DNA of 63,330 nt from a virus (IMGVR_UViG_3300043409_002192:1-63330); one strand, 5' to 3'. Positions 1-14,160 are shown, counted from the first letter of the stretch. Numbers and translations: made by a program. Notes: generated by a model from the sequence alone, not told the origin.

Positions 1-153
1 CTTGACGGACATCCCGAAAGCGAACTGTGGGGAGAAAACGGACTGATCGCCGCAACGATGCGAGCTGCCAACTACGCCAGTCGCCAGCAAGAAGCGGAAT
101 GGAAGCTGGCCGACTACCTGCGCGGCGGAGGAATGCTCGCAGCGCCTGCTGAC
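1..153. repeat. terminal direct repeat (circular assembly overlap), copy 1
   Basis: Identical to 63178-63330 except G27 vs C63204. Confidence 0.97.
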
Positions 154-324
154 GATGGCGACGCGTGGAAAGCTGGTCGAAGCCAGTCGATGTGCTACTG
201 CATCGACGGGCAGGGTCGGACGATCATGGAATGCGTCGAATCAATATCGGATGCGATCATGGAGGAAATTTCTTCCGAGAACGTGCGGGTCACAGAGGAC
301 TCTGGCGGAAAGGACGCACAATGA
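1..324 (+). CDS. 3' part of the ORF starting at 62905 that crosses the circular junction; hypothetical
   Basis: Frame from ATG 62905 is open through the repeat; ATG 63235 corresponds to ATG 58; stop TGA 322-324 overlaps next ATG 321. Confidence 0.75.
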   Translation, partial: LDGHPESELWGENGLIAATMRAANYASRQQEAEWKLADYLRGGGMLAAPADDGDAWKAGRSQSMCYCIDGQGRTIMECVESISDAIMEEISSENVRVTEDSGGKDAQ

Positions 325-569
325 CACCTGACGCGCCAACGGTTGACGCTCTCATTGCGGACTTGGAAGCGCGCGGCCTCGGCTGGTCGCTCGACAACAC
401 AGGACGGCTCATCGAGGCGCGCGTGTGGGACTGGCCGTATGTGATCGGACGCTACCGCCCGAATGCCACCGAGCCGCTCGCCAAGATGCTCGCCGAAGCG
501 ATGTATCAGGTGGACTGGACCCGCTACCCGGTGAAGTCGCCGAACGCTCTGCCAACCTCTGGGGCATGA
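321..569 (+). CDS. hypothetical cassette protein (MTPDAPTVDALIADLEARG...)
   Basis: ATGA overlap with the upstream stop; ends ...KSPNA.. inside the attC at 539. Confidence 0.7.
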   Translation: MTPDAPTVDALIADLEARGLGWSLDNTGRLIEARVWDWPYVIGRYRPNATEPLAKMLAEAMYQVDWTRYPVKSPNALPTSGA

Positions 570-668
570 CCAGTGAATCTCAAAATACCAAAAGACATGA
601 TCGAAGATGCAAAACTCACGAAGTCCGACACGCCAGCCCCAGAGGTTGGCAGCAGCGCTTTGTTCGGC
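539..668 (-). other. attC-like recombination site
   Basis: Plus strand GCCGAAC...GCCAACCTCTGGGGC / GCCCCAGAGGTTGGC...GTTCGGC imperfect palindrome; spacer appears shortened on one arm. Confidence 0.75.
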
Positions 669-974
669 TGGCTTGGCGAGGAGATAGCTCGCAATCGACG
701 GAGGGCTGAGCAAGCTACTGCTCTCGCTGACCGTCTAGCCTCCCTAATGGCCGGAGCCTGCGCTGCCGGCCAATGGCGCGGAGTCAAGACGGTGAAACTC
801 GTGACCGATAGGGCCTATGTGATCCGCAGGCCGGGAACAACATCGCTCGAGCTAGCAACATGGCACGACGGATGGCGCACAATCATGGGGCATATTGCCA
901 ACGGGGGGGAACTCGAAGTGTGGGAGCCGAACGCTGAGGTGAGGCACGGCGCAAAGGACGCTGACCTCGACTAG
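597..974 (+). CDS. hypothetical cassette protein
   Basis: ATG inside the attC loop (GTG 573 is an alternative); N-terminal SSALFG comes from the attC arm; ends WEPNA.. in the next attC. Confidence 0.7.
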   Translation: MIEDAKLTKSDTPAPEVGSSALFGWLGEEIARNRRRAEQATALADRLASLMAGACAAGQWRGVKTVKLVTDRAYVIRRPGTTSLELATWHDGWRTIMGHIANGGELEVWEPNAEVRHGAKDADLD

Positions 975-1011
975 AAACTTTCCCGCCGTTGCCTCGACCG
1001 TCTTGTTAGCC
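926..1011 (-). other. attC site (canonical architecture)
   Basis: Minus strand reads GGCTAAC-AAGAC-GGTcGAGG-CaACGGCG...CGCCGTG-CCTCACC-TCAGC-GTTCGGC: R'', L'' with extrahelical C, second extrahelical A, L', R'. Confidence 0.9.
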
Positions 1012-1032
1012 GTTCGGGGGACGCGGAAACCA

Positions 1033-1063
1033 AGCCGGACATGGGGGTTCTTCATGTCCGGCT
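1033..1063. terminator. hairpin in an ORF-less cassette, possible terminator
   Basis: AGCCGGACATG-loop-CATGTCCGGCT 11-bp stem; no clear U-tract. Confidence 0.45.
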
Positions 1064-1124
1064 AACGCTGCGGATCAGGCGACAGATGCGCTTCGAGCCG
1101 TTGCCTGCATCCCGCTGGTTCTCT
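1060..1124 (-). other. attC site
   Basis: GGCTAAC GCTGC GGATCAGGC...GCCTGCATCC CGCTG GTTCTCT; bulged base on the right arm of the plus strand. Confidence 0.85.
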
Positions 1125-1153
1125 GACGTTGGTAAAAAATCTTCAAATAGGGC

Positions 1154-1182
1154 TTGCATAATGTAGCTTAAAGCTACATAAT
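1154..1182 (+). promoter_or_regulatory. sigma70-like promoter with palindromic operator
   Basis: TTGCAT-17 nt-CATAAT; perfect inverted repeat ATGTAGCTT-A-AAGCTACAT at 1161-1179. Confidence 0.7.
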
Positions 1183-1205
1183 AACACCGTAACCCGATCC
1201 AAACT

Positions 1206-1511
1206 ATGAGCCTTCAATCCGACATCCAAGAATACAAAGCCGCTTCAAACTCAGCTAATGCTCTCTATGCCAAAATCGGCACAGATAGAGACGCAGCCGT
1301 AGCCAAAAAGAATGAGCGCTGGGCGGTCAATAAGCGCAAACGTGAAGCCGGAGAAAACATCATCATGGCGATGCTGGGCGAACACAAAGCAGCTCTGCAA
1401 CGGGCTGGACTGGTTGATCTCTACAACGAAATGGCCGCTGGCAAACATGAGTGTGACACAGCGTTCTTTGCAATCGTGGACGCCACCGTAAAATACTATG
1501 ACGCCGCCTGA
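1206..1511 (+). CDS. hypothetical protein
   Basis: 101-aa ORF directly after the promoter. Confidence 0.75.
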   Translation: MSLQSDIQEYKAASNSANALYAKIGTDRDAAVAKKNERWAVNKRKREAGENIIMAMLGEHKAALQRAGLVDLYNEMAAGKHECDTAFFAIVDATVKYYDAA

Positions 1512-1698
1512 ATACAAAAAGCTCCGCGAAAGCCTCGGCACACAAGCCGAGGTTGCTCGCATTCTGGGAGTCAACCGAGTGACAATCGCCAAACGCGAAA
1601 GCGGAGCGATGAAGCTCACTTGGGAAGCGTCTCTTGCAATGCGTGCCATTGCACCGCTCCGCAGTCCTAAACGCTTCCGGGAGGCACGCCGGAAATGA
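1498..1698 (+). CDS. XRE/Cro-type HTH protein
   Basis: MTPPEYKKLRESLGTQAEVARILGVNRVTIAKRESG helix-turn-helix pattern. Confidence 0.85.
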   Translation: MTPPEYKKLRESLGTQAEVARILGVNRVTIAKRESGAMKLTWEASLAMRAIAPLRSPKRFREARRK

Positions 1699-1751
1699 AG
1701 CCCGAATCAATCACAGACGTTATCGGCGTTGCCTCGCACGCCTTGTTCTCC
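1666..1751 (-). other. attC site
   Basis: CCTAAAC..GAGGCACGCCG / CGGCGTTGCCTC..GCCTT GTTCTCC. Confidence 0.75.
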
Positions 1752-1766
1752 ATCTTTTGAATTACC

Positions 1767-2072
1767 ATGAAAGTCCGCGACAAAAACATCAAACAGACTG
1801 TAAGTGTGGCCCATTCGCGTTGCCTCAAATGCGCGTGCTATTGGCCACGCCCCGATCCGGGGGTATTCACGCAAGGGCAGGGATACCGCCGACGCGAGGG
1901 AAAACAGGAATGGCTTTGCGGAACACGCGAAATCAGAGGATGCCCAACACGGGCGCGATGCTGCAACAGAGCCTACGCCGCCTATGAAACCAAGTGCCGG
2001 GAATGTGGTCATTCTTTGGAGAACGCACAAGCTCTGGCACAGCCGGGGCGCAACCAGACTCCGACACCATGA
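1767..2072 (+). CDS. Cys-rich (Zn-binding) hypothetical cassette protein
   Basis: Several CxxC motifs; ends LENA.. in the next attC. Confidence 0.7.
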   Translation: MKVRDKNIKQTVSVAHSRCLKCACYWPRPDPGVFTQGQGYRRREGKQEWLCGTREIRGCPTRARCCNRAYAAYETKCRECGHSLENAQALAQPGRNQTPTP

Positions 2073-2117
2073 AAAACTCCACCGCCCCGGCCGTTGTCCA
2101 GCAGCGCCTTGTTCGGC
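2018..2117 (-). other. attC site
   Basis: GGAGAAC..GCTCTGG..GCCGGGGCG / CGCCCCGGC..CCAGCAGC GCCTT GTTCGGC. Confidence 0.85.
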
Positions 2118-2914
2118 CTTCCGGTCGTGTGCTTTGCCGCTTCTCCTGTGGTGCCGCTTCCGCTGTGGCTACAAAGCTGGCAATCGAGAAATACGGCACG
2201 GTAGAAATCAACTACTCGGACACTGGCAGCGAGCATCCAGACAATGCCCGCTTCATCGCAGACTGTGAGCGGTGGTTCGGTCAGAAAGTCACGATCACGA
2301 AAAGCGAAAAATACCGCGACATCTGGGAAGTGTTCGAGAAGAAGCGGTTTCTTGTCTCGCACCAAGGAGCGCCATGCACGGCGGAAATGAAACGCCGCCC
2401 AGGTGATTCGGTCTGGAGTATCGGGGACACTGAAATCTTCGGATACACGGCAGACGAACGGCATCGGGTAGAGAAATGGTCACGGGACAACTTCGAGAGA
2501 ATCATTGAATGCCCGCTCATCGAAAAGAACCTCACGAAGGATGACTGCTTCGGAATCTTGGACCGTGTAGGCATCGAGCTTCCCGCCATGTATCGGTTGG
2601 GGTTCCGCAACAACAACTGCATCGGGTGCGTGAAAGCCCGCGATAATCTCGACTACTGGAAAAGAGTGCGAAAGCACTTCCCCGAAATCTTCGAGCGCAT
2701 GGCAAAGCTGGAGAGGGACATCGGAACGACGATCAACCGAATCACAAAAGCGGGGGAACGCTCCCCGATCTTCCTCGACGAAATCGAAGCAGGCGACCCG
2801 AAAGGCGCGGACCCTAATATCCAGTGCGGACTCTTCTGCATGGCCGAAGCTGACGCGCTACTTGATGGGCCGAACGATAAAACTGAGCCACAGGCCCCAC
2901 AATCAAATCTATGA
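2069..2914 (+). CDS. PAPS-reductase-like (adenine nucleotide alpha-hydrolase) family protein
   Basis: FSCGAASAVA PP-loop-like motif, HPDNARF, PCTAEMK, YRLGFRNNNCIGCVK, C-terminal CGLFC; ATG in the attC loop. Confidence 0.8.
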   Translation: MKNSTAPAVVQQRLVRPSGRVLCRFSCGAASAVATKLAIEKYGTVEINYSDTGSEHPDNARFIADCERWFGQKVTITKSEKYRDIWEVFEKKRFLVSHQGAPCTAEMKRRPGDSVWSIGDTEIFGYTADERHRVEKWSRDNFERIIECPLIEKNLTKDDCFGILDRVGIELPAMYRLGFRNNNCIGCVKARDNLDYWKRVRKHFPEIFERMAKLERDIGTTINRITKAGERSPIFLDEIEAGDPKGADPNIQCGLFCMAEADALLDGPNDKTEPQAPQSNL

Positions 2915-2964
2915 CAACACAAGAGACATCCGAGGGGCATATTGGCTCCAGTGCCTTGTTCGGC
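2869..2964 (-). other. attC site
   Basis: GCCGAAC GATAAA ACTGAGCC..GCCCC / GGGGC..GGCTCCAGT GCCTT GTTCGGC. Confidence 0.88.
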
Positions 2965-3264
2965 GTCCTTGAGTGGATCAGCCTCCAAGGAGGCACGTTC
3001 AACGCCTTCAATCCCGGCCTCATCACTGGCAAAGTGAGAGGTCTGACTTACCGCTACTTCATCGCGGAAGGGTGGATTGGGTTGAAGACACCGGACTGCA
3101 CGGCAGGGAAGGCGACAGAGTGCCTCAATATTGAGGATTTTCGATATGCGCTAGAAATCCATGCGCCGAACGCCGCTGCGCAGGACATGCCACACTTCCT
3201 GCCGAACGATTTAGCGCACACACAGAAGGGGCGGGAGCGCGGCCCCGATAAAACTCAAGCCTAA
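2911..3264 (+). CDS. hypothetical cassette protein
   Basis: ATGA overlap in the attC loop; SSALFG leader. Confidence 0.7.
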   Translation: MTTQETSEGHIGSSALFGVLEWISLQGGTFNAFNPGLITGKVRGLTYRYFIAEGWIGLKTPDCTAGKATECLNIEDFRYALEIHAPNAAAQDMPHFLPNDLAHTQKGRERGPDKTQA

Positions 3265-3329
3265 CTCTATGGAAACGACTACCTTTAACACAGCGGCCCC
3301 TTCTGTTGATGTGCCGCGCCTTGTTCGCC
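3201..3329 (-). other. attC site
   Basis: GCCGAAC GATTTA GCGCACA..ACAGAAGGGGC / GCCCCTTCTGT..TGTGCCGC GCCTT GTTCGCC. Confidence 0.85.
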
Positions 3330-3586
3330 CATTACGGACTGACGAGGAGATCGTCATGCAAACAGATAAGCTCGCCTTCACGCTGGCGCTACTGTCAGGC
3401 TACGCGTTCGATGCAGATTACAAGTTCCACCTGCACACGCGGATCGCTAGCTGCCCAATGCCTCGGCAGGCGCAGTTCTGGGAGATGGCTCGGCAAGCTC
3501 AATTGCTCCTGACCGACACTGACCCAGATGACGCCGTGGATAATCTCGATTGGGCGAACAGTGTGATACCCAAACCAGAAAAATGA
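3269..3586 (+). CDS. hypothetical cassette protein
   Basis: ATG in the attC loop; RLVRP leader; ends WANSV.. Confidence 0.7.
   Translation: METTTFNTAAPSVDVPRLVRPLRTDEEIVMQTDKLAFTLALLSGYAFDADYKFHLHTRIASCPMPRQAQFWEMARQAQLLLTDTDPDDAVDNLDWANSVIPKPEK
3553..3575 (-). other. putative attI-like array end site A
   Basis: GGCGAAC-AGTGTGATACCCAAAC, no hairpin, similar to 28853-28876. Confidence 0.55.
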
Positions 3587-3711
3587 CATCCTATGACACC
3601 CTACAAACAACTCTTTGTCGCCCGATCCGACATATTTGCTGACTTCGTGCGCAACTACGTCAGTGTAATTAGTCCATAGCCCAGTGTGTCAAAATTATAA
3701 AAATTATCAAA

Positions 3712-6700
3712 TCATTTTTCCACCTCCCCGAGTTGATCCACCGGCCGGTTCTTGAGTTCTCCCCATGCCCGGCGGCGGCCTTCCTCGTAGGCGTCCTTGA
3801 TGCGCTTCACATCGTCCTCGGTGGGCTTCAGCGGAATCCCGGCCAAGGCATTCTTTGCCAGTGTGGCACTGCGGACGCTCAGGTATTTGTAGGCTTGGGC
3901 GTTCAGTTTCACGCGGGCCGGTTTTCCGCCGATGGTGAGGTTCTGTGTGCGCTCGGGGGAACTTGGAGCCCATGCCGGTTTTCCGGGGTTCGCCTGATTC
4001 CATTTTCGCAGGACGATATCGGAAAGCGTGGGTTTTCCGCTTTCGATGGTGGCTGGAATAACCAAGCGGCTGATTGCATTCCCTGATTTCTGCTTGTCCT
4101 CCCCGGTGGCGGTATTCACGCGGGCTTCTGCCCCGGAGCCCAAGGGGGCCAGCTGATACCACCAGTCTGCCGTGGTGCTATCGCGCACGAGCGGATCCAT
4201 GTTCCGGACCGGTTGGCGGATGAGGTTGGGCACGAGGGCATTCAGGATGAACCGCTCGCCCTTGTCTGCCAGTTTGCCGGGCTGCTTCACGCTGTCGAAC
4301 ACCGCGGCCAGGCCGCTCAGGAACGTCTTATTGAGGGCGGCATCCTTCAGGCTACCGAACACCAGTCCGGCCTTCTCGGCGCTGTCTCCGCCGCCCTTCC
4401 AAATGCGGAGGGCGTCAATGATGCTGCCAAGGACGGTGGCGATCGGTTCAATGCGACCGTAGGGGATTTTGGTGTCACCGATGCGGATGATGTAGCTTCC
4501 GCCAGCCACGCGCTCCTGTAGGTCTCTTTCCGCAAAGTCTGCGGGCGGGCTGCCGGTGATGAGGAAGGTTTTTTCTTCGTCATCGTCATCGCCTTCTGCC
4601 GCGCCTTTCAATAAGGCGAGGGCGGCCATGGCGATGGTTTGCTCGGCGAGCCATTGCATCATCTGCGGGCTCGTGGCGGGGGTGAGTCCCACGCGGCCGC
4701 CGGAGATTTTCACTAGTCCGGATTTCCCGAGTTGGTAAAGCAGATGCGCCATCCCCAGCGGAGACTTCCGGATGCCGGCGCGGAAGATATTGTAAGGAGT
4801 GCGGATGAAGGGCAGGATGAAACCCAGGAGGCGGCTGGAGTTTTTCCATTGCTGGAGGGGTTTCAGGGATTCCGGCAGTTCCGTCTGGAAGGTCAGTTCA
4901 CGCGCCTTCTCGACCGCCAGCTGCCATGCCTGGCTGCCGGGAGTGTAGAGGAGGGCATTCATGCGCTTCTGCATGGGCTCGCCACTGAGGCCTTCCGCCT
5001 TGGCGATGCGGTAGGCCTGCGCTGCGGCTTCCAGTTGGGCGACGGCGCCTTTGAAGAAGCCATCGACGGCCATGAGGGCGCGTCCGGGAATGCGCACCGT
5101 AGATCCGACGCTGGCACCCTTCCATCCTTTGCCTTTGGCTAGATCAATCACAGCGCCGGGCAGGCTTTTTGCCCCCGGTGTTCCGATCCGCCCCAGACTA
5201 TCCGGAATGGCGACCCGGCGTCCTTCGCCCTTCGGCCCGGTTTCGAAGAGTTCCGGCTCATTGTTCATGACATCGTAGTCGAACCAATCGGTTTCCGTTC
5301 GCCAGGCTTTGGACATGAGGCGGTATCCTCTGGCGACCCCGGGGAAGATGGCTTTGGCCATATAACGGAACTCTCCGAACTGGGCACCTTTCTTGTCGCG
5401 GATGGCGAGGTTCCAGACGGCTTCCATCCCACGCTGCACGGTCAATTCCCATGCGCTGGCAGCGGCGTTCCCGCTGATGTTGACCACCTGAGTCTGGGGG
5501 CCGGAGAGGAGGTTGTTGATCCAGTATTCCTGAACCATGTCCAGCGGATGGCCTTCGACCGTCTGGGCGAGGCGGGCGAGACGCACCATGTCTTCCACAT
5601 TGGCCATGTCGGCACCGTTGAGCACAGAGATTTCCATTTCCACCGGTTCATTGAGGCCAAGTCCAAGTTCCTGCTGGGGGATGTTGCGTTCCCATGTCTT
5701 CCCGGGTCCTGGCGGGATGCTGTTGTCAGCAGGTGGCGTGGTGCCGGGAATGCGGGGCTGAGTGCCATCTTGGCGGGGGAGGCGGGGCAGAGCGGCGTAT
5801 TCGTCCAAAGACATGCCAGTGCCGGCGGCGGGTGGCTGGAACAGGCGTTTGCGCTTCACCGTCTTTCGTTTGCCCTGCTGCTTGTCGGGGAAGTATCCCA
5901 TCTGACGGATGAGTTTCTGAATCTCCGCTTCCGCATCGGCATCCGACATGGCAGCCATGGCGGCGAAATCCACGTCCACGAGGTCGGCCGGCTGGCTGCC
6001 AAGTGGGGAGGACTGCAATCCGGCGGCGGCTTTGGCCCGGACCCGCATGGCGCGGAGTTGTTCCGCCAGCTTTGTCATCATCTTCTCCTTCACGGCGCGG
6101 ACTTCCTGAGGCGTCAGGCCTACCTCTTTCCCGATGTCGATGAAGGTCTTCTCTCCGCCTTGGAGGAGGATGGCAGCCTTCGCTTCCTTGGCTCCCAGGG
6201 TGGCAGCGGTCTGGCCGATGATGGCAGCCTTCCGGAGGGAAAGCTGAATCCCGCCGGAGAACAAATCATCAAGGGTAACGCCCATCTTGGCGAACTCCAT
6301 TTCGATCCGGCGGATGCGCTTGGCGTCCTCATCAAGGATCTTCTGGCGTTCGGCGGCGGTTTTTGCTTCCTCCATCTTCTTCCGCACCTTAGCCGGCGGC
6401 GTGAATATTTGCTTGGCGAGGAACTCGCGGTGCCGCGCCTCTGGTGTCTTAAAGGGATCCCGGCGGGAGGCGAGGCCGCGGGCTTGTTCCGTGCCGGCCT
6501 GGCGGTAGGCATAGACGAGAGCCTGCAACCGGCGCTGGCGGGGGCCGGTGAGAGGATTCCGGGATTCGCGTTCCACGATCATCTGGGCGGCCCGGGTAAG
6601 CTCCGGGGTCAACTGTCCGCCTTGGAGCCCATTGGCCATCAGACGTTGCACGGTGCCTTCGTAGTCATCAGCCAGCATGGCGCGGGCGGCGGCGTCCCAT

Positions 6701-9700
6701 TGGTCGAAGGTTTCCTCGGTGGCGGTGGCGGCGCGGTAGGCATCCACGCCCATGATGACGGGATCGCCGAAAGCGGTGAAACCCCCACCCAAGCCAAGAT
6801 CAGGATTGCCCACCGTGCGGTTGCCGGAGGTTTCTGCTTCGGCTTGGCCGGTGAGGTCATTGAGGGCGGTGAGGTCCACGCCAGCAGCGCGGAGGGCGTC
6901 TTCGAAGGATTGGGATTGGAGAATGGAATTGCTGTCAGGATTGAAGCGTTGGGACAGCGGGATGACGTTGCCCTGCTCGTCGCGGGTGATCGGGTCGGCG
7001 GATTTGATTTGGGATGCGGATGCGTAGATCTGCCCGTTAAATCGGTCGAACCCGTTGCCCCAGTTGCTTAGTTCTTCTGCCCGAATGAGGGCTTCAAACT
7101 CGATGGGGACAACCCCGGCCATCAAGGCTACTTTTGCTGTTTTAGCTTTGTCCGTGTCGTCGCCGGCGGTTCTGTCAAAATTAGCGTAACTCAGAGCATT
7201 TGTGTCTCCAGCCCCGTCGCCTTGAATCCATTCGTCAAATTCTTGTGCTTGGTCTTCAGATAGCTCAAATGTTGGAATTTCGATCTCGGCGCGGCCGGCG
7301 CGACGGAGTATTTCGTTTGCCCTTCTCGCTGCAAAAATGCGATGTGACCCCGTTAACGCTCTGTCCCCCAATCGTAAGATCGGGCGGCCATTCCATTTTC
7401 CAGATTTGGCAAACTCCCGAGCCATGGCAGCAACGTGCTTTTCCCGACCGGGGTATATCTCGTTAACAGGTTCAAGATACTCAGGATCAATGGAATCGTT
7501 TGGTTGCAATAACTCCAGTCCCGCCGCCTGCGCCGCCGCGTCCACCATGCGCTGCGCCGTCTCCATGTCACCGGCTTCCACGGCGGCCATGTATTCGGCG
7601 TCATGCAGGCGGTCGGTTGTCGTGATGGAAAAGGAGTTGACGGCAGCGCCGGATTGTGTTGGATTCGCTTCGTCAGCAATGACACGACCGGCCGCCCCGT
7701 CAGGGGCCAAGGCAACTGTTTTTGCCTTGGTTCCACCGTCAGTCTTCGCAAGAGGGCTGACGGTTTTGCTTGTCCACGGCATCCCTTCCCAACCGTTTCC
7801 GTAGGCTTTTTCCGCAGCAATGGCGAACTTGGAAATCAGCCATTCTGACGCCTTTTTGACCTCTGCCAAGGTCGTAGGCTTTGATAGTCTGAAATCATCG
7901 TTATTAAAACCAAACTGCTTTTCGCGGAAGACAGACGGATCATGATTGGCAATCCGGTATTTTTTCACCTCGCCACCTGCAAATGCATCATCGTCTGCCC
8001 AGTCAGGTATGCCTACATCATTAAAATCAGCCGCCGGGCGGATCATAAAATATTGGCTTCCAGTAGTCGCGCCTTGGTATTGTATTTCAACGCCAATAGC
8101 TTTGGCCAGTTCTGATGCTTCCTGCGTGCTTTCATGAATGTAATCCAGCGGAAAGTCAGGATTGAAATCAACATCCGTTGGCTCCATGGATTTTAATCTA
8201 TCCAACGCTGATGCGTAATGATCATTGGCAGGCAAGGAATCCTCAAAGGATTGAGACTGTAAAGGCTGAGCTTCATACCATCGCTGGAACGCATCATAGG
8301 CACTGGCAGCCGTTTTTCCTTCGCCTCCAGATATTCCTCCTTCACTTAGAACAGTCCAACTTTGATTGCGCTTGTAAAGATTTGGAAGAAAAGTCGAATT
8401 TTCACCAGGAGCAATTAATTCCCAACCTTTTGGCAACTGGCGTTTTACTTCTTCTGGCGACATTTGATTTTGGACTTCTGAAAACACTGGCAATCCAGTT
8501 TCGTTTTGCAGATTTAAATATTCCACTGGCTCCACGCCTTCTTCCTTTTCAATCAGCACAAAGAACTCGCCATCAATGACCCGATGCCCGGCTACCCCGT
8601 ATTCCTGCCCGTCCAGATAAACAGAGGTTCCCACTGGAGCCCCGTTTCGAAGCCATGAAGGCGCGGGAACAGGATTGGCTTCCAAATCCTGCACAAGATC
8701 CGCCAGTTGCTTCTGCTTTTTCTCAAGGTCTGTCTGCCGGGCGAATGGTGTTTCCGCCACTTTTTGAAGGCTGAGGATACTGGATTCCCGCTCTTTCACC
8801 AATTGGCCAAGAGCAGTGATTTCCGCAGTGATACCGCGAAGGGTGTAGTCCAATGAACCCACGGCGACATTCCGCACCAGATGGTCTGTGGCCCCGCGGA
8901 GTTCGATCTTCCGGACTGGTTCCGTAGAGGCCAGAGAACGCTGGCGGAAAGCACGGATTTCAAAGCCCCGGTATTCTCCGATAGTGGTCCATTGAATCGC
9001 GGTGTTGAACGTCTCCTGAATGGGCAGCTGCTCCACGGCATCCGCCAATGTGTTTTCAGCGGTGTCCTTGTCGGTGATGGTCTTTCCATCCAGCACGATG
9101 GAAAACTTCTGTTCCCGTGCTTTGGCGAAAGTGTCAGCGTCAATGCTCAGTTCAGGAATGCGGCCGGAGTAATACCGGATGTCACGTTCTAGGGAAGGAA
9201 TACGGTTCTTGGCATTGGCGATGGCCTGCCAGTGGCTCCGCTGTTTATCAAGGAGCTTGTTCACGTCCTTGTTCAGCTTTTCGCGCATAAGGATGCGGGG
9301 ATCACCGGCAGCGGCAGAGAATGTTTCCTCAAAGCCTCCGCCCCCTTCCTCTTCCATGTCCACGCCATCGCCTTCAATCACGCGAAGGGAGCCGTCCGCT
9401 TTCATGAATTTCTTGATGAAGCGGTCCTTTGTCAGGAGAATCTGCCACCGCCGGCCATCGTGACTGCCTTCGGTGATGTAGCGGTATTCCAGCACGGTAT
9501 TCCACCGGTTCCCCTGACGCCATCCACGGCCGTTCCGTTGCTCAAGGTCGCCAGGCATCCATGGGGCATCCAAATGGTGCATGGCCCGCATTTCCATCTG
9601 GGCATTCACCCCGGTCCCCATGGTTTCCGTGCTGCCAATGGCGACACGGATCAAACCTTCCTGCATTTTCTCGGCGGCAATCTTCCGCTCATCAGCGGAA

Positions 9701-12700
9701 AGGTCAGAGAAAATAACAATCTCATCTTCGGAAAGGCCAGCTTCGATCAGCTTGTTTTTGAGGTCCTTGGCCACATTGAAGACAGGCACTTTCACCTTGC
9801 CCTTCTCCTTGTTGCCGCGCTCCACAAAGTCAGAGAAACCCGTCTGCATGAACACCATTTGCGTGCTCTTTGGGTGTTCTCCGTAGTGCCGCATGATGTT
9901 TTTGGCGGCCCGGTAAACCTTGCTATCAGGCGTATCCAGTGCGTTCGGTTCGATCAGACGGTAATCCATGGAGGACTTCACGCCTTCGCCTTCAATCATG
10001 ATCGGCATTTCGGGGGCACCGCTGCGCATGGCATCCCGTTTCTGCTTGCCATTCATGTTTTTCCAACGGCGGTAACGGGCGGATAACTGCTCCTTGTGCG
10101 CTTTCTGCACGGCACTCATGGGGCTGATTTCATTCACCACTTGTTTGAATGGGCGTCCGATGGCGTCTTCGGTGCGTTCGTCACGGTCACTGCGGGGCTC
10201 AAACTCCGGCATGTCATCAGCAAACACGATGTCGAGGTATTGCCCAATCATCCGGCGGAGTTCCGGCAGGTTCACGAAGGAGGAAAGGCGTTCCACCGGT
10301 TCCCACTCGCTGGCACTGTTGAGTTCTACTTCTGTGGTGCTGGAGGCGAAGGAATTGAACCAATCATCCCAGCCGGCAATGCCGTCCCGCTTCATCACGT
10401 CATCCATGATGTAGCGCATCATGTTAAACACCTCATTCAGGGTGTTGGTGATAGGAGTCCCGGTAAACAGGTGAATCCCATTGCCTCCGTTGTTCCGCTT
10501 CACGTAATCAGCCAGTAATCCCAGCATGATCCCGCGCTTGCTGCCGTTTTTGTTCAGGCCCTTGAGCTTCTGCTTGGTGCTGAGAGGCAGCTTTTTGAAG
10601 ATGTGCGCTTCATCGACAATCACCATGTCTACGCCCAAATCTTCGAAGAACACGGAATCCGGGTTCTCGGCCATCTGCCGGGCCTTTTCGATCATGGCTT
10701 TGACCTTCTCGCGCTCCTTCACCAATTCCTTGGCAGTGGGGCTGCGGAGTTTCTTCAGAGCGTCAGGATCATCCATATCCTCAATGGACAGGCTGGCGTT
10801 GTCATCTTCGGCAGCGGCAATGGCGGCCTGTTCCAGTTGTTCGATTTCCTCACGAACCAAGGCTTCCACGGATTCCGGACGGAGAGACAAACGGGAAATC
10901 AGACTGTGGGGAATCACTACGGCGTCCCACTCATCCAGTGCGATCTGGGCGAGAGTGGCGGCACGGGTGGCCGGGTTAAAGTTGTCCACGAACAACACCT
11001 TCCCGCCGGGATAGGCAGACTGGATTTCAGCGGCCACCTGTCGGGCATTGGCATTGTGGGCAAGGATGATTGGTTTACGCGCCCGGCCCAACCGGCGGCT
11101 TTCCATGACAAGGCCAGCCATGACAAGAGTTTTGCCAGTGCCGACCTCATGAGCATTCAGCGAGCGACCGGTGACCACACCACGCCAGACGGCATTCTGT
11201 TGGTGTTGCCGGAGATTGAACGGACCATTCCCCTTGGAAACAGCCAAGCCTTCAAATGCAAGGTGGCTGCCATCGTAATTTGGCAGAGCGATGGCATTGT
11301 AAACCTCGTTATAGTTTTTCTCCAAGCGTCCGGCGCGTTCCGGATCCTGCCAGAGCCATTTCGTGAACTCTTCCCGGATGGCTTCCACCTTGGCGTTTGC
11401 TTCCTTGGTCGCCTTTTCATTCACGGGCTGGCTACCGTCTTCCTGCCGGGGGTATTTGATCACCACGGTCGCGTTGTTCATGGCAGCGGATACCAACTTG
11501 CGGAAGGAGTAATCGGCCACGCCCCATGTGGTCGTGGCTTCCGGCTTGCGGGTCAGGCCATCGTCCATTTGCACTTTCCAGCCCTGCGGCATCTTGTCGA
11601 TCTTCACCCCTGAATCTGTATTCAGGAGAGACTGGACAAACTCCACATAATCCTTCGACGGTACCCAAGTAGCTCCGATCTTCGCTTCAATCTGGAAGTA
11701 AGGGATATCGGCAGGAATCACCGCAGCAAGGGCGTCAATGTTCCGGTCCATGTCCATCACGCCCTGTTCCTTGGCATCAAGGGCTTGACGGTATTTTTCC
11801 CGGACATTGCCGGCGAGGTAGATGTCCGTGGGTTCGTAGGTGCCCACCGGGGTCTTGTAAATCTGATTGGTGGCAAACAGTTCCTTCTCCACCTCATCCA
11901 CCGTGGTCTTGGCCTTTACTGCAATGGAGGGAAGATCCAGAACTAAGGAGGCATTGCGGGCGAGGACGTAGGCATCCGCGATGGAAGGATTCTTAATGCT
12001 CCGAACGCCCCGCAGCACGTCCTTGGTGAAAATGTCGGCTTTTATCACGGTGTCGCCATTCACCTTTTCCAAGGCCATCAGCATAGGCATAAACGGATCG
12101 CCTACCCGAGCCATGATAGAAATCCCTTCACTCCTCCGGATGGATTTGTGCGCTTTGGTGAACGCGTCGTATTGATCATTCAACTGCTTCCGCAGGCCGG
12201 TGGAATCGCGATTGTTGCGCTGGGCATCCAGCAAAGCCCCGACTGTCCGACGGATTTCCACCAGGTCTTTGATTTGAGCTTCCCGCTTGGCCGTTTTGGC
12301 GGCGTCCTTCACGGCATACTTCACCACATTGGAAAGCGGCTTCAGATGGTCACCATCGACCACGTAAAGGCCATCATCTGTTCTTACCACGCTGCCCTGT
12401 CGGTCATTGGAATTGTTGGTGACGTAGCTATCAGCTTGGCCAGCGGTCAGTGATGGAACGTAAGCGGCATCTTTCGGCAGCATTTCCGCCACCTTGGCCA
12501 AGCGCTCTGGCAGGTCGTCAGTGCGGTTCACAATCATCCCTGGCCGGTAGCTCGTGGTGCCGTGGCCGTGATTGAGCACTCCCAGAATGTTTTCCGGGTG
12601 GTCGGCGAAGTATTCATTGATTTCCACATCCGTCCCACTTGGGGTCCGGACGCTCTTGAGATTGAGGAATCCGCTTTCACGCGGGTCGCTTGGTTTCTCC

Positions 12701-14160
12701 AGCTTTTGGAAAACAAGAATGTCCGTCACAACACTGGTGCCGGCGTATTCCTTGAAGGCACCTGTGGGCAAACGGAAGGCGGCCACCAGTTTCCCACGCT
12801 TGGCCATTTCAATGCGGGAGCGGATGCCCTTCTTGTCCATGGTGCCATTGGAGGTAATGCCCACCACGAGGCCGCCGGGGCGGGTTTGATCCAGTGCCTT
12901 GATGAAAAAGTAATCGTGAAGCACTGCGCCGATGGCGTCATACCGCTTGTCCACGGGAATTCCATTGGAGAACGGCCAGTTCCCAATAACCATATCGTAG
13001 AAGTTATCACTGGTCTTGCTTTGCTCGTAGGGTTTAATCTGGATGTTCGCCTGCGGGAAGAGGATTTTAGCCATGCCTCCGCTGACTTCATCCATTTCAA
13101 TGCCGGTCAGGGTGGAATTGGCGGCAATGTCTGGCGGCATGAGACTGAAGAAGTTTCCAATACCCATGGACGGCTCCAGCACACGGCCCCCCGTGAAGCC
13201 AAGAGCCTTCACGATGTCATACACAGCCTTCACCGTGGGCGGGTCGGTGTAGTGGGCATTGATGATGCTGGTTTGCATCCCCTCCCATTCCTTCTGTCCC
13301 AAATGATCCCGCAGCCATTCGTCTTCTTTTTCCCATCCGGCTTTTGGCTTGGACTTGGACCACGATCCTTGGAAAAGCTCTTGGCCGAATGATCCCCACC
13401 CCATGTAACCGGCCAGAGTATCCAGTTCTTCCTGAGTAGGTTCCCGATTGGCGGTGCGGAGGTCCTGGTAAACCTCAATCGCTTTCTGATTCCGGGCAAA
13501 CTTGGACTTGGGTCCACCGCCAACAATGGCTTCCGGGTTGGTCAGCTGATAATTGGCACGACTTGGCGCTTTCTCTGCCGGGGCGCGAACATCAGGCGCT
13601 ACGCTAGGCTTGCGCTTTCTTCTGCGTCCTCCGGTGTCATCAGGTCGCCTAATACTTCGATCGACGCCTGAATCATTGGTTCCGGGTGATTCTGATCCCC
13701 CAGTTCCTGCCATCGATTCATCATTTTGGCTTCCATCACCCGGGCGTAATGCAGGGTTATCCCCGCTTCGTTCAGTTGCATCCACCGCCGGGGGCAATGC
13801 TCCTTCCAGAACTCCACCATCTCCTTCATCTTGGGTGAGACTCCCGGCCACTCCTGCGCTATCTTGAGTGATTCCGTCTTGATTTCCTGGGCGTAAGTCG
13901 GGTTCATTTGCGGTAATGTCGGCTAAGTTGGTAGGTTCGTCAATCTCTGGCTTGGGAGCCAAGGCAGCCCTGAGCGTTTTCACGTTCTTCATGGTCATCA
14001 CCATGACCTCTTTGACGGCTTGCAGTTCCGCTTCCTCCTGTGAGCGCAGATAGCCTGGACTGTCCATGATGGTCTGCACCCGTGCCTTAAGGCCGGTCCG
14101 GACGACTTTGGGGAGGCTGATGGTCTGAAGACAGCCGCGAAGGTTGGGGGAAGAGAGCAT
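3712..14160 (-). CDS. giant DarB-like / large polyvalent protein (N6-adenine MTase + SNF2 helicase + ParB-like + C-terminal polyvalent region)
   Basis: VLEPSMGIGNF and IGNWPF (MTase motifs I/IV), AHEVGTGKT, VDEAH, QRNGRGWRQGN (SF2), GSHRIFAA (ParB-like); 3482 aa. Confidence 0.9.
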   Translation of the reverse strand: MLSSPNLRGCLQTISLPKVVRTGLKARVQTIMDSPGYLRSQEEAELQAVKEVMVMTMKNVKTLRAALAPKPEIDEPTNLADITANEPDLRPGNQDGITQDSAGVAGSLTQDEGDGGVLEGALPPAVDATERSGDNPALRPGDGSQNDESMAGTGGSESPGTNDSGVDRSIRRPDDTGGRRRKRKPSVAPDVRAPAEKAPSRANYQLTNPEAIVGGGPKSKFARNQKAIEVYQDLRTANREPTQEELDTLAGYMGWGSFGQELFQGSWSKSKPKAGWEKEDEWLRDHLGQKEWEGMQTSIINAHYTDPPTVKAVYDIVKALGFTGGRVLEPSMGIGNFFSLMPPDIAANSTLTGIEMDEVSGGMAKILFPQANIQIKPYEQSKTSDNFYDMVIGNWPFSNGIPVDKRYDAIGAVLHDYFFIKALDQTRPGGLVVGITSNGTMDKKGIRSRIEMAKRGKLVAAFRLPTGAFKEYAGTSVVTDILVFQKLEKPSDPRESGFLNLKSVRTPSGTDVEINEYFADHPENILGVLNHGHGTTSYRPGMIVNRTDDLPERLAKVAEMLPKDAAYVPSLTAGQADSYVTNNSNDRQGSVVRTDDGLYVVDGDHLKPLSNVVKYAVKDAAKTAKREAQIKDLVEIRRTVGALLDAQRNNRDSTGLRKQLNDQYDAFTKAHKSIRRSEGISIMARVGDPFMPMLMALEKVNGDTVIKADIFTKDVLRGVRSIKNPSIADAYVLARNASLVLDLPSIAVKAKTTVDEVEKELFATNQIYKTPVGTYEPTDIYLAGNVREKYRQALDAKEQGVMDMDRNIDALAAVIPADIPYFQIEAKIGATWVPSKDYVEFVQSLLNTDSGVKIDKMPQGWKVQMDDGLTRKPEATTTWGVADYSFRKLVSAAMNNATVVIKYPRQEDGSQPVNEKATKEANAKVEAIREEFTKWLWQDPERAGRLEKNYNEVYNAIALPNYDGSHLAFEGLAVSKGNGPFNLRQHQQNAVWRGVVTGRSLNAHEVGTGKTLVMAGLVMESRRLGRARKPIILAHNANARQVAAEIQSAYPGGKVLFVDNFNPATRAATLAQIALDEWDAVVIPHSLISRLSLRPESVEALVREEIEQLEQAAIAAAEDDNASLSIEDMDDPDALKKLRSPTAKELVKEREKVKAMIEKARQMAENPDSVFFEDLGVDMVIVDEAHIFKKLPLSTKQKLKGLNKNGSKRGIMLGLLADYVKRNNGGNGIHLFTGTPITNTLNEVFNMMRYIMDDVMKRDGIAGWDDWFNSFASSTTEVELNSASEWEPVERLSSFVNLPELRRMIGQYLDIVFADDMPEFEPRSDRDERTEDAIGRPFKQVVNEISPMSAVQKAHKEQLSARYRRWKNMNGKQKRDAMRSGAPEMPIMIEGEGVKSSMDYRLIEPNALDTPDSKVYRAAKNIMRHYGEHPKSTQMVFMQTGFSDFVERGNKEKGKVKVPVFNVAKDLKNKLIEAGLSEDEIVIFSDLSADERKIAAEKMQEGLIRVAIGSTETMGTGVNAQMEMRAMHHLDAPWMPGDLEQRNGRGWRQGNRWNTVLEYRYITEGSHDGRRWQILLTKDRFIKKFMKADGSLRVIEGDGVDMEEEGGGGFEETFSAAAGDPRILMREKLNKDVNKLLDKQRSHWQAIANAKNRIPSLERDIRYYSGRIPELSIDADTFAKAREQKFSIVLDGKTITDKDTAENTLADAVEQLPIQETFNTAIQWTTIGEYRGFEIRAFRQRSLASTEPVRKIELRGATDHLVRNVAVGSLDYTLRGITAEITALGQLVKERESSILSLQKVAETPFARQTDLEKKQKQLADLVQDLEANPVPAPSWLRNGAPVGTSVYLDGQEYGVAGHRVIDGEFFVLIEKEEGVEPVEYLNLQNETGLPVFSEVQNQMSPEEVKRQLPKGWELIAPGENSTFLPNLYKRNQSWTVLSEGGISGGEGKTAASAYDAFQRWYEAQPLQSQSFEDSLPANDHYASALDRLKSMEPTDVDFNPDFPLDYIHESTQEASELAKAIGVEIQYQGATTGSQYFMIRPAADFNDVGIPDWADDDAFAGGEVKKYRIANHDPSVFREKQFGFNNDDFRLSKPTTLAEVKKASEWLISKFAIAAEKAYGNGWEGMPWTSKTVSPLAKTDGGTKAKTVALAPDGAAGRVIADEANPTQSGAAVNSFSITTTDRLHDAEYMAAVEAGDMETAQRMVDAAAQAAGLELLQPNDSIDPEYLEPVNEIYPGREKHVAAMAREFAKSGKWNGRPILRLGDRALTGSHRIFAARRANEILRRAGRAEIEIPTFELSEDQAQEFDEWIQGDGAGDTNALSYANFDRTAGDDTDKAKTAKVALMAGVVPIEFEALIRAEELSNWGNGFDRFNGQIYASASQIKSADPITRDEQGNVIPLSQRFNPDSNSILQSQSFEDALRAAGVDLTALNDLTGQAEAETSGNRTVGNPDLGLGGGFTAFGDPVIMGVDAYRAATATEETFDQWDAAARAMLADDYEGTVQRLMANGLQGGQLTPELTRAAQMIVERESRNPLTGPRQRRLQALVYAYRQAGTEQARGLASRRDPFKTPEARHREFLAKQIFTPPAKVRKKMEEAKTAAERQKILDEDAKRIRRIEMEFAKMGVTLDDLFSGGIQLSLRKAAIIGQTAATLGAKEAKAAILLQGGEKTFIDIGKEVGLTPQEVRAVKEKMMTKLAEQLRAMRVRAKAAAGLQSSPLGSQPADLVDVDFAAMAAMSDADAEAEIQKLIRQMGYFPDKQQGKRKTVKRKRLFQPPAAGTGMSLDEYAALPRLPRQDGTQPRIPGTTPPADNSIPPGPGKTWERNIPQQELGLGLNEPVEMEISVLNGADMANVEDMVRLARLAQTVEGHPLDMVQEYWINNLLSGPQTQVVNISGNAAASAWELTVQRGMEAVWNLAIRDKKGAQFGEFRYMAKAIFPGVARGYRLMSKAWRTETDWFDYDVMNNEPELFETGPKGEGRRVAIPDSLGRIGTPGAKSLPGAVIDLAKGKGWKGASVGSTVRIPGRALMAVDGFFKGAVAQLEAAAQAYRIAKAEGLSGEPMQKRMNALLYTPGSQAWQLAVEKARELTFQTELPESLKPLQQWKNSSRLLGFILPFIRTPYNIFRAGIRKSPLGMAHLLYQLGKSGLVKISGGRVGLTPATSPQMMQWLAEQTIAMAALALLKGAAEGDDDDEEKTFLITGSPPADFAERDLQERVAGGSYIIRIGDTKIPYGRIEPIATVLGSIIDALRIWKGGGDSAEKAGLVFGSLKDAALNKTFLSGLAAVFDSVKQPGKLADKGERFILNALVPNLIRQPVRNMDPLVRDSTTADWWYQLAPLGSGAEARVNTATGEDKQKSGNAISRLVIPATIESGKPTLSDIVLRKWNQANPGKPAWAPSSPERTQNLTIGGKPARVKLNAQAYKYLSVRSATLAKNALAGIPLKPTEDDVKRIKDAYEEGRRRAWGELKNRPVDQLGEVEK
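13599..13907 (-). CDS. possible overprinted small protein nested in another frame of the giant gene
   Basis: 102-aa ATG ORF with globular, helical composition lying over a low-complexity linker. Confidence 0.45.
   Translation of the reverse strand: MNPTYAQEIKTESLKIAQEWPGVSPKMKEMVEFWKEHCPRRWMQLNEAGITLHYARVMEAKMMNRWQELGDQNHPEPMIQASIEVLGDLMTPEDAEESASLA

Follow-up and report, generated by a model that had tools for sequence, protein, structure and literature searches.

Bacterial integrons, either mobile (class 1) or sedentary and chromosomal (for example the Vibrio VCR array), are the closest described systems to the locus analysed here. Chromosomal integrons also include reverse-oriented cassettes, for example toxin-antitoxin cassettes, which occur singly and carry their own promoters, and in the "inverted integrase" integrons of spirochaetes and others it is the intI gene that is inverted. 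According to the published description, the attC bottom strand carries extrahelical bases opposite its AAC arm, at position 16 and as a T at 23/24, with a 6-bp stem between the two, a spacer of 5-6 and a length of 57-141 bp, and it typically folds more stably than the top strand (PMC5027507). Phages have been surveyed as well: a search of 10,705 NCBI phage genomes reported 17 CALINs, and when six phage attC sites were assayed, five recombined with attI1 under IntI1 (Qi, Rajabal, Ghaly, Tetu and Gillings 2023; PMC9892861). Synthetic attC sites have been embedded in arbitrary and coding sequence (Nivina et al. 2020; PMC7439510); a site is described there as writable into other sequence because attC function depends on structure.

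Two probable cassette arrays in a complete phage genome

The window, the whole stretch of 63,330 nucleotides that was analysed, is a complete phage genome of 63 kb with two plus-strand arrays of small early genes that hold folded sites. Eleven imperfect attC-like hairpins of 62-130 nt were identified, eight in array A and three in array B. All eight palindromes named for array A in the original prediction, at 62860, 539, 926, 1060, 1666, 2018, 2869 and 3201, are present. No match to the integron integrase model TIGR02249 or to PF00589 was found across the whole window, which thus also yields no tyrosine recombinase and no complete integron with intI (TIGR02249) and attI adjoining an array. Each array contains at least two consecutive attC sites with no intI nearby, and the window, being without an integrase, is therefore of the CALIN type. 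The cargo consists mostly of unknown proteins, together with a Lar-like restriction-alleviation domain, a PAPS-reductase-family enzyme and an HTH protein.

Arrays A and B are read here, at a probability of about 0.8, as integron-type gene cassettes forming two CALINs in a phage genome that lacks its own integrase. The integron-type identity that had been proposed is supported by site anatomy, by the complementarity of cassette ends, by an independently trained attC covariance model, and by the presence of intI beside an array of the same kind elsewhere. The features are listed below, all on the plus strand; z denotes the DNA-fold z-score, extra bases are numbered by position, and R1 is a covariance model trained on 13 control attC sites only.

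62577-62709, plus strand: cassette body with 13-bp complementary boxes (GTT at 62577, AAC ending at 62709), coding for a zinc-ribbon-like N-terminal half in ORF 62525-62908
62860-62962, plus strand: attC-like site; z -4.0; extra bases at 16, 21 and 24; R1 15.9 bits, E 0.13; contains the stop of ORF 62525-62908 and the start of ORF 62905-(wrap)324, with an ATGA overlap
62956-63113, plus strand: cassette body with 9-bp complementary boxes, coding for a Lar-like zinc ribbon (PF14354); no hairpin after its AAC box
539-668, plus strand: attC-like site with a 17-bp perfect inner stem; z -6.65; extra base at 16; loop with the stop of ORF 321-569 and the start of ORF 573-974
926-1011, plus strand: attC-like site; G16 and T23 with a 6-bp stem between; R1 E 0.25; z -1.1; recurs almost unchanged in other phage contigs and in contigs from other runs
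1005-1066, plus strand: mini-cassette of about 60 bp with matching 8-bp boxes, read by eye; holds only a perfect 11-bp hairpin and no ORF
1060-1124, plus strand: weak attC-like site; R1 E 2.4; z -0.27; GTT box partnerless (6 bp only)
1666-1751, plus strand: weak attC-like site; T23 bulge; z -0.67; missed by R1; right arm common to site 926; GTT box pairs with the AAC box at 2017
2018-2117, plus strand: attC-like site; R1 E 0.015; extra bases at 16, 21 and 24; loop with the ATGA stop/start of ORF 1767-2072 and the PAPS-reductase gene
2111-2875, plus strand: PAPS-reductase cassette body with 8-bp complementary boxes; PF01507, phrog_424 at 1.5e-52
2869-2964, plus strand: attC-like site; R1 E 9e-4; z -4.0
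3165-3186, plus strand: orphan AAC box and start of a 5' arm, partner of GTT box 2958; 19 letters identical to the 5' arm of site 27615; looks like a remnant of a lost site
3201-3329, plus strand: attC-like site; R1 E 0.18; extra bases at 16, 21 and 24; z -1.2
3551-3625, plus strand: AAC box (9-bp partner of 3323), then a degenerate site whose right box is one T short (read by eye); end of array A
27615-27738, plus strand: weak attC-like site of array B; arm-scan score 14; z -1.4; missed by R1
27931-28023, plus strand: attC-like site of array B; z -2.7; extra bases at 16 and 23; R1 E 0.29
28224-28285, plus strand: best attC-like site, in array B; T16, A20 and T24; R1 28.7 bits, E 3.8e-5; z -5.5
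28850-28859, plus strand: AAC box, 10-bp partner of GTT box 28279; no hairpin after it

Anatomy, strand and folding of the sites

The 11 sites are bounded by xxxxAAC and GTTxxxx, the 7-bp inverse core boxes (R'/R'') expected at the two ends of an integron attC, and their spacer measures about 5 nt. The AAC and GTT triplets show no variation in any of the 17 sites that were aligned. As in the published attC hairpins, the spacer is unpaired, the terminal structure is variable, and the lengths (62-130) lie within 57-141 bp. The GTT arm holds 55 extra bases, at positions 16(17), 20-22 and 23/24, against 25 in the AAC arm, nearly all of these within the spacer. This distribution, with extrahelical bases at about 16, (20) and 23/24 (T) in the arm opposite AAC, matches that of the controls, 24 attC sites adjoining intI on four metagenome contigs. 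In the controls position 16 is extrahelical in 19 of 24 sites and position 23 in 14 of 24, and T accounts for 18 of 19 extra bases at 22-25. The window sites have nine extra bases at 15-17 and eight T at 22-25; 50 sites from other phage contigs have 36 at position 16, and T makes up 41 of their 43 at 22-25. The placing of the attC top strand on the minus strand, which had been proposed from the extra bases, is confirmed by this geometry and by the covariance model. When the strand call was validated on control arrays, 25 of 30 matches were called on the bottom strand, the sense strand of intI.

As a surrogate check on both strands of the 63-kb window, R1 returned seven of the 11 sites as its top seven matches, all on the plus strand, at full length and with exact ends (E 3.8e-5 to 0.29). 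Another of the 11 was matched at E 2.4, giving 8/11 in all; E<0.05 was reached by three sites only, and at E<=10 sites 539, 1666 and 27615 were missed. In 10 other phage loci all 28 matches of R1 fell on the strand predicted by the seed. An anchored arm-alignment scan gave nine matches at a score of at least 16, every one within the arrays and one of them an inner duplicate of site 539; over 40 dinucleotide shuffles the average was 3.05, and no shuffle exceeded 6. No Rfam family matches the sites. The sites vary in how stably they fold: five are clearly stabler than shuffles (z-scores of -6.65, -5.5, -4.0, -4.0 and -2.7), and the other six, at -0.27 to -1.4, are no better than shuffles. A bottom strand stabler than the top was seen in 15 of 18 control attC sites (mean -1.9 kcal/mol); in the window the mean is +0.33 kcal/mol, negative in 3 of 11 sites.

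Complementary ends of the cassettes

An integron cassette begins, just past the crossover, with sequence that complements the R box at its far end, and circle formation thereby restores a paired R box. The same relation is found here in 10 of 12 cassettes, in which 8-13 bp of the GTT box can pair with the AAC box that follows the next gene body, and all ten pairs listed in the original prediction are real. A script comparing each right box with AAC boxes within 1 kb recovered 9/12 at 8-13 bp; the tenth, 1005/1059 (8 bp), was read directly, its boxes being only 54 bp apart and so closer together than the script allowed. The GTT boxes at 1118 and 27732 have no partner of at least 8 bp (6 bp each). 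Among 842 other GTT triplets of the window, complementarity of at least 8 bp occurs with a probability of 0.019, so that the binomial p for 10/12 is 4e-16. Box sequences vary among cassettes and co-vary with their partners. Comparable pairs are found in other phage contigs: 10 of 11 at >=7 bp in L002, and 5 of 5, 3 of 3 and 1 of 1 at >=8 bp in L140, L117 and L103. Boxes without a hairpin or without a partner are those at 62709, 63113, 1118, 27732 and 28850. The cassette body 62577-62709 looks fused or degenerate, because the site upstream of it shows no clear AAC box and a GTT box is missing from the hairpin that follows 62709.

Gene orientation and reading frame

The gene sense strand appears to be the attC bottom strand, the reverse of the control integrons, as supported by Pfam and PHROG matches, codon-position GC, the frame lock and the opposite result in the controls. 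The original prediction of genes inverted relative to attC is thus right, since it is the bottom strand that carries gene sense. Pfam and PHROG matches of the window cassette genes lie on the plus strand. Raw ORF overlap favours this strand in only 4 of 7 window intervals; in control integrons the larger-overlap ORF lies on the other strand in 21 of 24 intervals. The usual cassette trait, an ORF on the attC top strand that ends before or in the site, is not seen in the window. The sites had also been described as separating the genes, and this is to be corrected: ORFs run into, through and out of the sites, whose interiors hold stop and start codons. In 15 of 17 window sites (p 8e-5), and in 31 of 37 from other phage contigs (p 1e-7), the AAC of the crossover is a codon of the reading frame; the background is 0.41 in both cases. 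The GTT box occupies all three phases.

Integrase and shared cassettes in other phage contigs

The phage contig L002 shares the PAPS-reductase cassette with the window and encodes an integron integrase at the end of its array. With 307.8 bits on TIGR02249, the product of L002:7224-8237 exceeds the cut-off of 265, and its full-length alignment to VchIntIA (2a3v) has an E of 7.5e-60; the gene lies 30 nt past the last AAC box, on the attC bottom strand. L140, L117 and L103 share this layout of array and intI, the integrase of L140 being near the TIGR02249 cut-off (260 vs 265). In all four contigs intI occupies the end that corresponds to 3551-3625.

The nucleotide likeness of the PAPS cassette, 84% to L001 and 73% to L002, is limited to window positions 2135-2854, and the L002 copy has different boxes that again match each other (9 bp). 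The zinc-ribbon cassette 62577-62709 resembles L117 1343-1513 (53% aa / 71% nt likeness, with the same 14-nt GTT box), which sits between two attC sites of that intI-bearing phage contig. For both cassettes, likeness between otherwise unrelated phage contigs ends near the boxes. Contigs from other studies match the sites only, or the PAPS cassette over 2077-2878, and 2878 is the AAC box. The proposal that the phage builds its accessory genome from shuffleable cassettes is borne out in part by the recurrence of these two cassettes; as for the window phage itself, IntI is absent and no recombination event was observed, and among contigs at 85% likeness no excision circle or rearranged variant was seen.

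A 21-letter pattern from two window sites matched 43 IMG/VR records, so the array system seems to be widespread. Fourteen of the 43 are at least 90% complete by CheckV, seven of them classed as direct terminal repeats, and 13 of the 14 have no IntI match. Integrase-less arrays are therefore common.

Alternative explanations

The arrays might be fossils, built by IntI in an ancestor or another element and now immobile, with hairpins kept for their stop and start signals and perhaps for translation coupling or mRNA shape. The missing IntI, the degenerate or truncated sites at 62709, 3165, 3551 and 28850, the absent bottom-strand folding advantage, the weak z-scores in 6/11 sites and the lack of variant arrangements among contigs at 85% likeness all agree with this. 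We nevertheless consider it unlikely, as the 8-13 bp box pairs are still perfect in 10/12 cassettes although only a 3-base core is conserved across all sites, the extra-base geometry is preserved as well as in control attC sites, and arrays without integrase are the common state rather than a rare relic.

Still less probable is a merely attC-like substrate of another recombinase, such as an unrecognised single-strand enzyme or the phage's own small serine recombinase at 31301-31987, of the resolvase/invertase type (phrog_125, 1.8e-31), which is encoded in the window where IntI is not. Serine invertases act on short double-stranded palindromes, unlike these 60-130-nt bulged hairpins; moreover, the geometry equals that of intI-adjoining sites, a model trained on such sites detects those of the window, and the same arrays end at an intI gene in four phage contigs. 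The least probable reading, by a small step, takes the hairpins not as recombination sites at all but as structures in RNA or DNA that act in termination, in RNase III processing or in coupling the translation of early genes. Being on the sense strand, the hairpins are also present in mRNA, stop and start codons lie within their loops, and the arm 1725-1742 fits a terminator-like pattern. T-runs are missing after most stems, however, no Rfam family was found, and such structures would explain neither complementarity to the box past the gene body rather than to the same hairpin's own box, nor the linkage to intI, nor the breaks of between-phage likeness at the boxes.

Proposed mechanism and implications

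If the arrays are integron-type cassettes, a plus-strand cassette would begin with the C of one AA|C box, take in the folded attC, its GTT box and the gene body, and finish at xxxxAA in the following box. IntI would cut the folded plus strand between A and C at two such sites, releasing the cassette as a circle with its own AAC and GTT boxes paired to each other. This pairing would be why the boxes flanking a gene body match, while a single hairpin often has two that differ. The genes, on the attC bottom strand, would be read from phage promoters toward the attI/intI end. Each site comprises the tail and stop of the upstream gene together with the start codon of the downstream gene and its first 15-30 codons. 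The AAC of the crossover is retained as an in-frame Asn codon, so that proteins would still be terminated whatever order the cassettes took.

The cassettes of the window may still be moved by an IntI acting in trans, whether encoded by the host itself, by a prophage or by a co-infecting phage, and the cargo may serve early host takeover or anti-defence. There is perhaps an even chance that a large group of phages in freshwater and wastewater operates an integron system of its own, with bottom-strand genes, attC in gene ends, AA|C locked to codon phase, an IntI carried by a minority and serving the rest in trans, and early or anti-defence cargo. With AA|C locked to the codon boundary, every reshuffling would yield an operon translatable from phage promoters.

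The results suggest that some phages swap accessory genes as cassettes. Exchange of small, fast-evolving early genes among phages is usually ascribed to illegitimate or short-homology recombination; a site-specific cassette system would offer a defined mechanism with junctions testable at AA|C. If true, the arrays would be a phage counterpart of the defence-gene "biobanks" in bacterial chromosomal integrons and, seemingly widespread as they are, could serve the systematic discovery of phage accessory and counter-defence genes.

Comparison with known systems

The phage CALINs of Qi et al. are likewise integrase-less attC clusters, in virulent or uncharacterised phages; the window differs in having at least 11 sites in two arrays (PMC9892861). 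As phage attC clusters were thus published in 2023 (PMC9892861), novelty is smaller than the original prediction assumed. The passages of that paper that were consulted yielded no mention of bottom-strand ORFs, ORFs through attC or a frame-locked crossover (PMC9892861), and it is the reversed, frame-locked layout that seems new. The sites of Nivina et al. were engineered, whereas the natural sites of the window appear to be written into gene ends (PMC7439510). Such a design would represent natural recombination sites in coding sequence, hitherto an engineering idea only.

With bacterial integrons the window shares AAC/GTT inverse core boxes, an unpaired central spacer, a variable terminal loop, extrahelical bases at 16/(20)/23-24 opposite the AAC arm, a length of 62-130 nt and complementary cassette ends; in the related phage contigs, intI again lies at the array end with the attC bottom strand as its sense strand. 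The window differs in that its ORFs lie on the bottom strand and run through the sites with AAC frame-locked, and in having no bottom-strand folding advantage, no intI and no attI.

Reverse-oriented cassettes and "inverted integrase" integrons likewise depart from the rule that cassette ORFs point away from intI. In the phage system, by contrast, whole arrays are reversed, and the polarity of intI relative to attC is the usual one.

Organization of the phage genome and its arrays

The two rows of small genes in this phage, each carrying attC-like hairpins, represent a real feature that is best read as integron-type cassettes, a reading to which a probability of about 0.8 is given. The main features of the genome are as follows.

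Main features of the phage genome
~62316 across the junction to 3586, + strand: array A, block of small genes
26242 to ~28900, + strand: array B, block of small genes
3712-14160, - strand: giant ORF, 3482 aa
17811-25874, - strand: giant ORF, 2687 aa
31301-31987, + strand: small serine recombinase, resolvase/invertase type (phrog_125, 1.8e-31)

The IMG/VR record, 63,330 bases long, has an estimated completeness of 100%. Positions 1-153 are repeated at 63178-63330 with one mismatch (position 27), indicating that the genome is terminally redundant or the assembly circular; the collection labels the record 'linear'. The phage genes include those for terminase, portal, head protein, Sak4-like annealing protein, exonuclease, helicase and a primase-like protein. 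Together the two giant ORFs make up 29% of the genome. A search of IMG/VR returned a single distant relative (one contig, 42%) for the C-terminal 400 aa of the 3482-aa protein and none for the N-terminal 400 aa of the 2687-aa protein. A search for tyrosine recombinases across the window returned none, and the best NCBIfam matches of the serine recombinase are far under their cut-offs; the window encodes no recombinase able to act on attC-like sites. A host search with an IntI query among genome contigs gave only two irrelevant Clostridia matches, and the sole hint of a host comes from the closest named homologues of IntI, which belong to MAGs with the labels Sphingomonadales (81%) and Opitutaceae (72%).

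Structure of the attC-like sites

All eight palindromes originally described in array A are present in the sequence, and three more were identified in array B. Aligned, the sites share a 5' arm of the form xxxxAACG... and a 3' arm of the form ...GTTG-(~13 nt)-CTTGTTxxxx. The same conserved letters are translated in different frames by different genes, for example as SALFG vs RLVRP, which places their conservation at the DNA rather than the protein level.

As outlined by Nivina et al. (2016, PMC5027507), the recombined attC bottom strand carries AAC on its 5' arm, has a 5-6-nt unpaired spacer and a variable loop, and totals 57-141 bp. Opposite the AAC arm stand extrahelical bases at position 16, a conserved T at 23/24 and sometimes a base at 20, a stem of 6 bp separating the first from the last (same source). 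Seventeen sites, 11 from the window and six from L002, another viral contig, were counted for these characters. Their 3' arms hold 55 extra bases vs 25 on the 5' arms; those of the 5' arm lie nearly all in the spacer, and those of the 3' arm cluster at 16(17), 20-22 and 23/24. In site 926, for example, a 6-bp stem lies between G16 and T23; the extra bases of site 28224 are T16, A20 and T24. Control sites were obtained from 80 metagenome contigs encoding IntI homologues, in four of which the arrays upstream of intI were used. The control attC sites have an extra base at 16 in 19/24 and at 23 in 14/24, and T makes up 18/19 of the extras at 22-25; across the 11 window sites, positions 15-17 hold 9 extras and positions 22-25 hold 8 T. 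In 50 sites from other phage contigs, position 16 holds 36 extras, and T accounts for 41/43 at 22-25. The histogram of extra bases is the same in controls and phage sites.

A search of both strands with an attC covariance model had been proposed as a check, and was run with R1, a surrogate for IntegronFinder's model trained on 13 control attC sites only and applied unfiltered to the whole window. Its top seven matches are seven of the 11 sites, all on the + strand, at full length and with exact end coordinates (E values 3.8e-5, 9e-4, 0.015, 0.13, 0.18, 0.25 and 0.29). An eighth site has E 2.4, and sites 539, 1666 and 27615 were not recovered in this search. Weak R1 matches at 34570-34634 (+) in the terminase gene (E 2.3) and at 43947-44007 (+) in the primase-like gene (E 3.5) are most likely due to chance. 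Rfam holds no family matching these sites.

Folding each site as single-stranded DNA was also proposed at the outset. The expected hairpin forms in 11/11, but only five clearly beat shuffled sequences (z-scores -2.7 to -6.65), the other six reaching -0.27 to -1.4. Anchored two-arm alignment is more specific than folding energy: at a score of at least 16, 9/9 matches in the window lie inside the arrays, and 40 shuffles give a mean of 3.05 matches and a maximum of 6. A generic duplex-energy scan at -15.5 kcal or below was abandoned for its high background (17 clusters vs 7-18 in 10 shuffles), being informative only at -18.5 or below, with nine clusters vs a shuffle mean of 1.9. An RNAalifold consensus on a MAFFT alignment of the 17 sites returned zero pairs; the arms were misaligned, and within an array the two R boxes of a given site do not match each other. 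No covariance model was therefore made from the phage sites themselves.

Complementary ends of the cassettes

The original prediction held that each GTT box matches the AAC box ending the next gene. For each of 12 GTT boxes the longest complementary downstream AAC box was sought by a script with a minimum distance of 60 bases. Partners of 8-13 bp were found for 9/12, and the script passed over a tenth, 1005/1059 (8 bp), only because its spacing falls under that minimum; GTT boxes at 1118 and 27732 have no qualifying partner. Since only 1.9% of 842 other GTT triplets in the window reach 8 bp, 10/12 paired boxes has p = 4e-16, and the relationship stands. The box sequences differ among cassettes (GTTCGGCT, GTTAGCCG, GTTCTCCA, GTTCGCCCA, GTTAGGCGGC and others), and each GTT box co-varies with the box past its gene body rather than with its partner in the hairpin. 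Such co-variation across the gene body is what marks units circularising via crossover within the box.

One unit, at 1005-1066, is a ~60-bp 'empty' cassette with matching boxes and a single perfect 11-bp hairpin as its contents; the first ~28 letters past its GTT box recur in L140 and L103, two other phage contigs, again behind this attC type. It lies directly upstream of a promoter-like sequence at ~1148-1180, read by eye and not reported by the consensus scan. Sigma-70-like promoters read by eye near 1148-1180, 62275, 26165 and 28300 were set aside as unsupported by that scan, which covered 1-3800 only.

Gene orientation and reading frame

Ordinary integrons have intI diverging from the cassettes, which makes the attC bottom strand the sense strand of intI. 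Among control matches, 25/30 place the bottom strand on the intI sense strand, with three opposite and two undecided, and the larger-overlap ORF lies on the strand other than attC bottom in 21/24 control intervals. The genes of the window and of L002 lie on the attC bottom strand. In the window arrays, Pfam/PHROG matches on the + strand comprise PAPS_reduct, Lar_restr_allev and HTH_3; seven ATGA stop/start overlaps occur on +, codon-position GC favours + as the coding strand, and AT skew is positive, like that of the remaining + strand genes. Together with the frame lock described below, these lines indicate that the cassette genes are reversed relative to attC, and the prediction was right on this point. 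The reversed genes of L002, L140, L117 and L103 are directed towards intI.

Other indicators of strand discriminate less well. ORF length in this GC-rich window is ambiguous (plus larger in only 4/7 intervals), and ORF-coverage tiling, with plus exceeding minus in 9/13 phage arrays and minus exceeding plus in 4/4 controls, is only suggestive. ORFs starting and ending within sites number 31 and 37/50 on plus vs 20 and 24/50 on minus, which is weakly discriminating. AT skew was rejected as a general marker of the coding strand, since it works in the phage and is uninformative in the control integrons (mean -0.01).

The genes run through the sites. The upstream gene stops 0-20 codons past AAC, the downstream gene starts in the hairpin loop, and the 3' arm and GTT box code part of its N-terminus. 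AAC falls in frame with the upstream ORF, as one of its codons, at 15/17 sites in the window and L002 and at 31/37 sites across 15 other phage loci; against the 41% of AAC that are in frame in the window's long genes, these counts have p = 8e-5 and 1e-7, respectively. GTT box phases are spread over all three frames (4/1/3 and 8/14/11). IntI cleaves the attC bottom strand between A and C of AAC, and the asymmetry between AAC and GTT is expected if crossovers occur at the + strand AAC box. Under the cassette model the GTT box would travel with its own gene, and selection would keep translation possible across every AAC junction, a short tail and the stop coming from the next cassette.

Integron integrases in related phage arrays

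The L002 array has partners of 7-12 bp for 10/11 of its GTT boxes, and its integrase gene begins 30 bases past the last AAC box. The product scores 307.8 bits with TIGR02249 (cut-off 265) and aligns over its full length with PDB 2a3v, the integron integrase of Vibrio (E 7.5e-60), IntI-specific segment included. L140, L117 and L103 likewise carry intI directly downstream of the array on the attC bottom strand; in L140 the last AAC box is ~45 nt ahead of the ATG taken as the intI start. Beyond intI in L002, at 8926-9290, a lone attC-like site with a box-bounded ORF (8969-9319) stands outside the main array, flanked by the genes of the small and the large terminase, and cassettes therefore occur singly too.

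A 21-letter pattern derived from sites 926 and 1666, from the right arm of each, matches 44 stretches in 43 IMG/VR records, 14 of which are at least 90% complete. None exceeds the TIGR02249 cut-off of 265 bits; three score 250-260 and one 180, and L140, L117 and L103 are among these four. In ten phage loci with a seeded arm, R1 places 28/28 matches on the seed-predicted strand, and 9/9 of their GTT boxes find a complementary box of at least 8 bp.

Cassette contents are shared between phages. Within +/-7 kb, the PAPS-reductase gene body (2135-2854) is the sole nucleotide likeness of the window to L002 (73%) and to L001, a further phage contig (84%), and PAPS-reductase is the only clear protein-level likeness to the whole L002 record. 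The borders of this cassette, 2111-2875 in the window, read GTTAGGCGG...CCGCCTAAC in L002 vs GTTCGGCC...GGCCGAAC in the window, a compensatory change at both ends. The N-terminal half of ORF 62525-62908, the part enclosed by the 13-bp boxes, has 53% protein identity to a cassette of the intI-bearing L117 that lies between two attC sites and has an identical 14-letter GTT box. The HTH gene has a 39% relative in another contig, L138, between two sites and likewise on the bottom strand.

For freshwater and wastewater contigs of other studies, compared at 85% likeness, matches to the window are confined to four sites (926, 1666, 2018 and 3201). A single such contig covers 2077-2878, stopping at the AAC box of 2869, and its remaining 405 letters are unaligned to the window. 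These contigs show site sequences in other contexts, not rearrangement of this phage. Sequencing run X2 contains scattered pieces identical to the window, with coverage too thin to tell cassette content and with uncovered parts counting for nothing as evidence, and a junction 1112->3204 in one contig of run X5 was discounted for its shorter side of only 21 letters.

Discussion

Some observations fit the cassette reading less well. Bottom-strand folding is favoured in 15/18 control sites; this advantage was looked for in the window sites and is absent (mean +0.33 kcal/mol, negative in 3/11). Coding constraints on both arms may explain the loss, or it could reflect weaker strand choice or decay. 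Some window boxes lack a hairpin or a partner. The orphan box at 3165-3186, 30 nt ahead of site 3201, comes with 19 letters that also stand in site 27615's 5' arm, and looks like the scar of an old event.

The PAPS gene of L001 has no attC-type borders and lies between two copies of a ~35-bp repeat ending an SSB-like gene; its transfer followed an insertion route other than attC cassettes, unexplained by the cassette model. This gene (L001 9940-10830) encodes a PAPS-reductase 93% identical, and the L001 portal region is ~40% identical to that of the window. The repeat encodes an SSB-like ...DDIPF tail with its stop and ends GGCGGTT, so that the PAPS enzyme apparently gained an SSB C-terminal tail.

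By the usual definition the phage arrays are CALINs, clusters of attC sites without integrase. CALINs and integrons of phages have both been published before, and the kind itself is therefore known: Qi et al. (2023, PMC9892861) report CALINs or integrons in 21 phages among 10,705 genomes, and recombination by IntI1 of 5/6 tested phage attC sites. The layout at issue here consists of whole arrays with bottom-strand ORFs, attC in the gene ends and a frame-locked crossover triplet. It was not found in the literature searched, which included part of PMC9892861; the phage CALINs tabulated in the supplement of that paper may bear on novelty. The site family of this layout is common to dozens of IMG/VR phage records.
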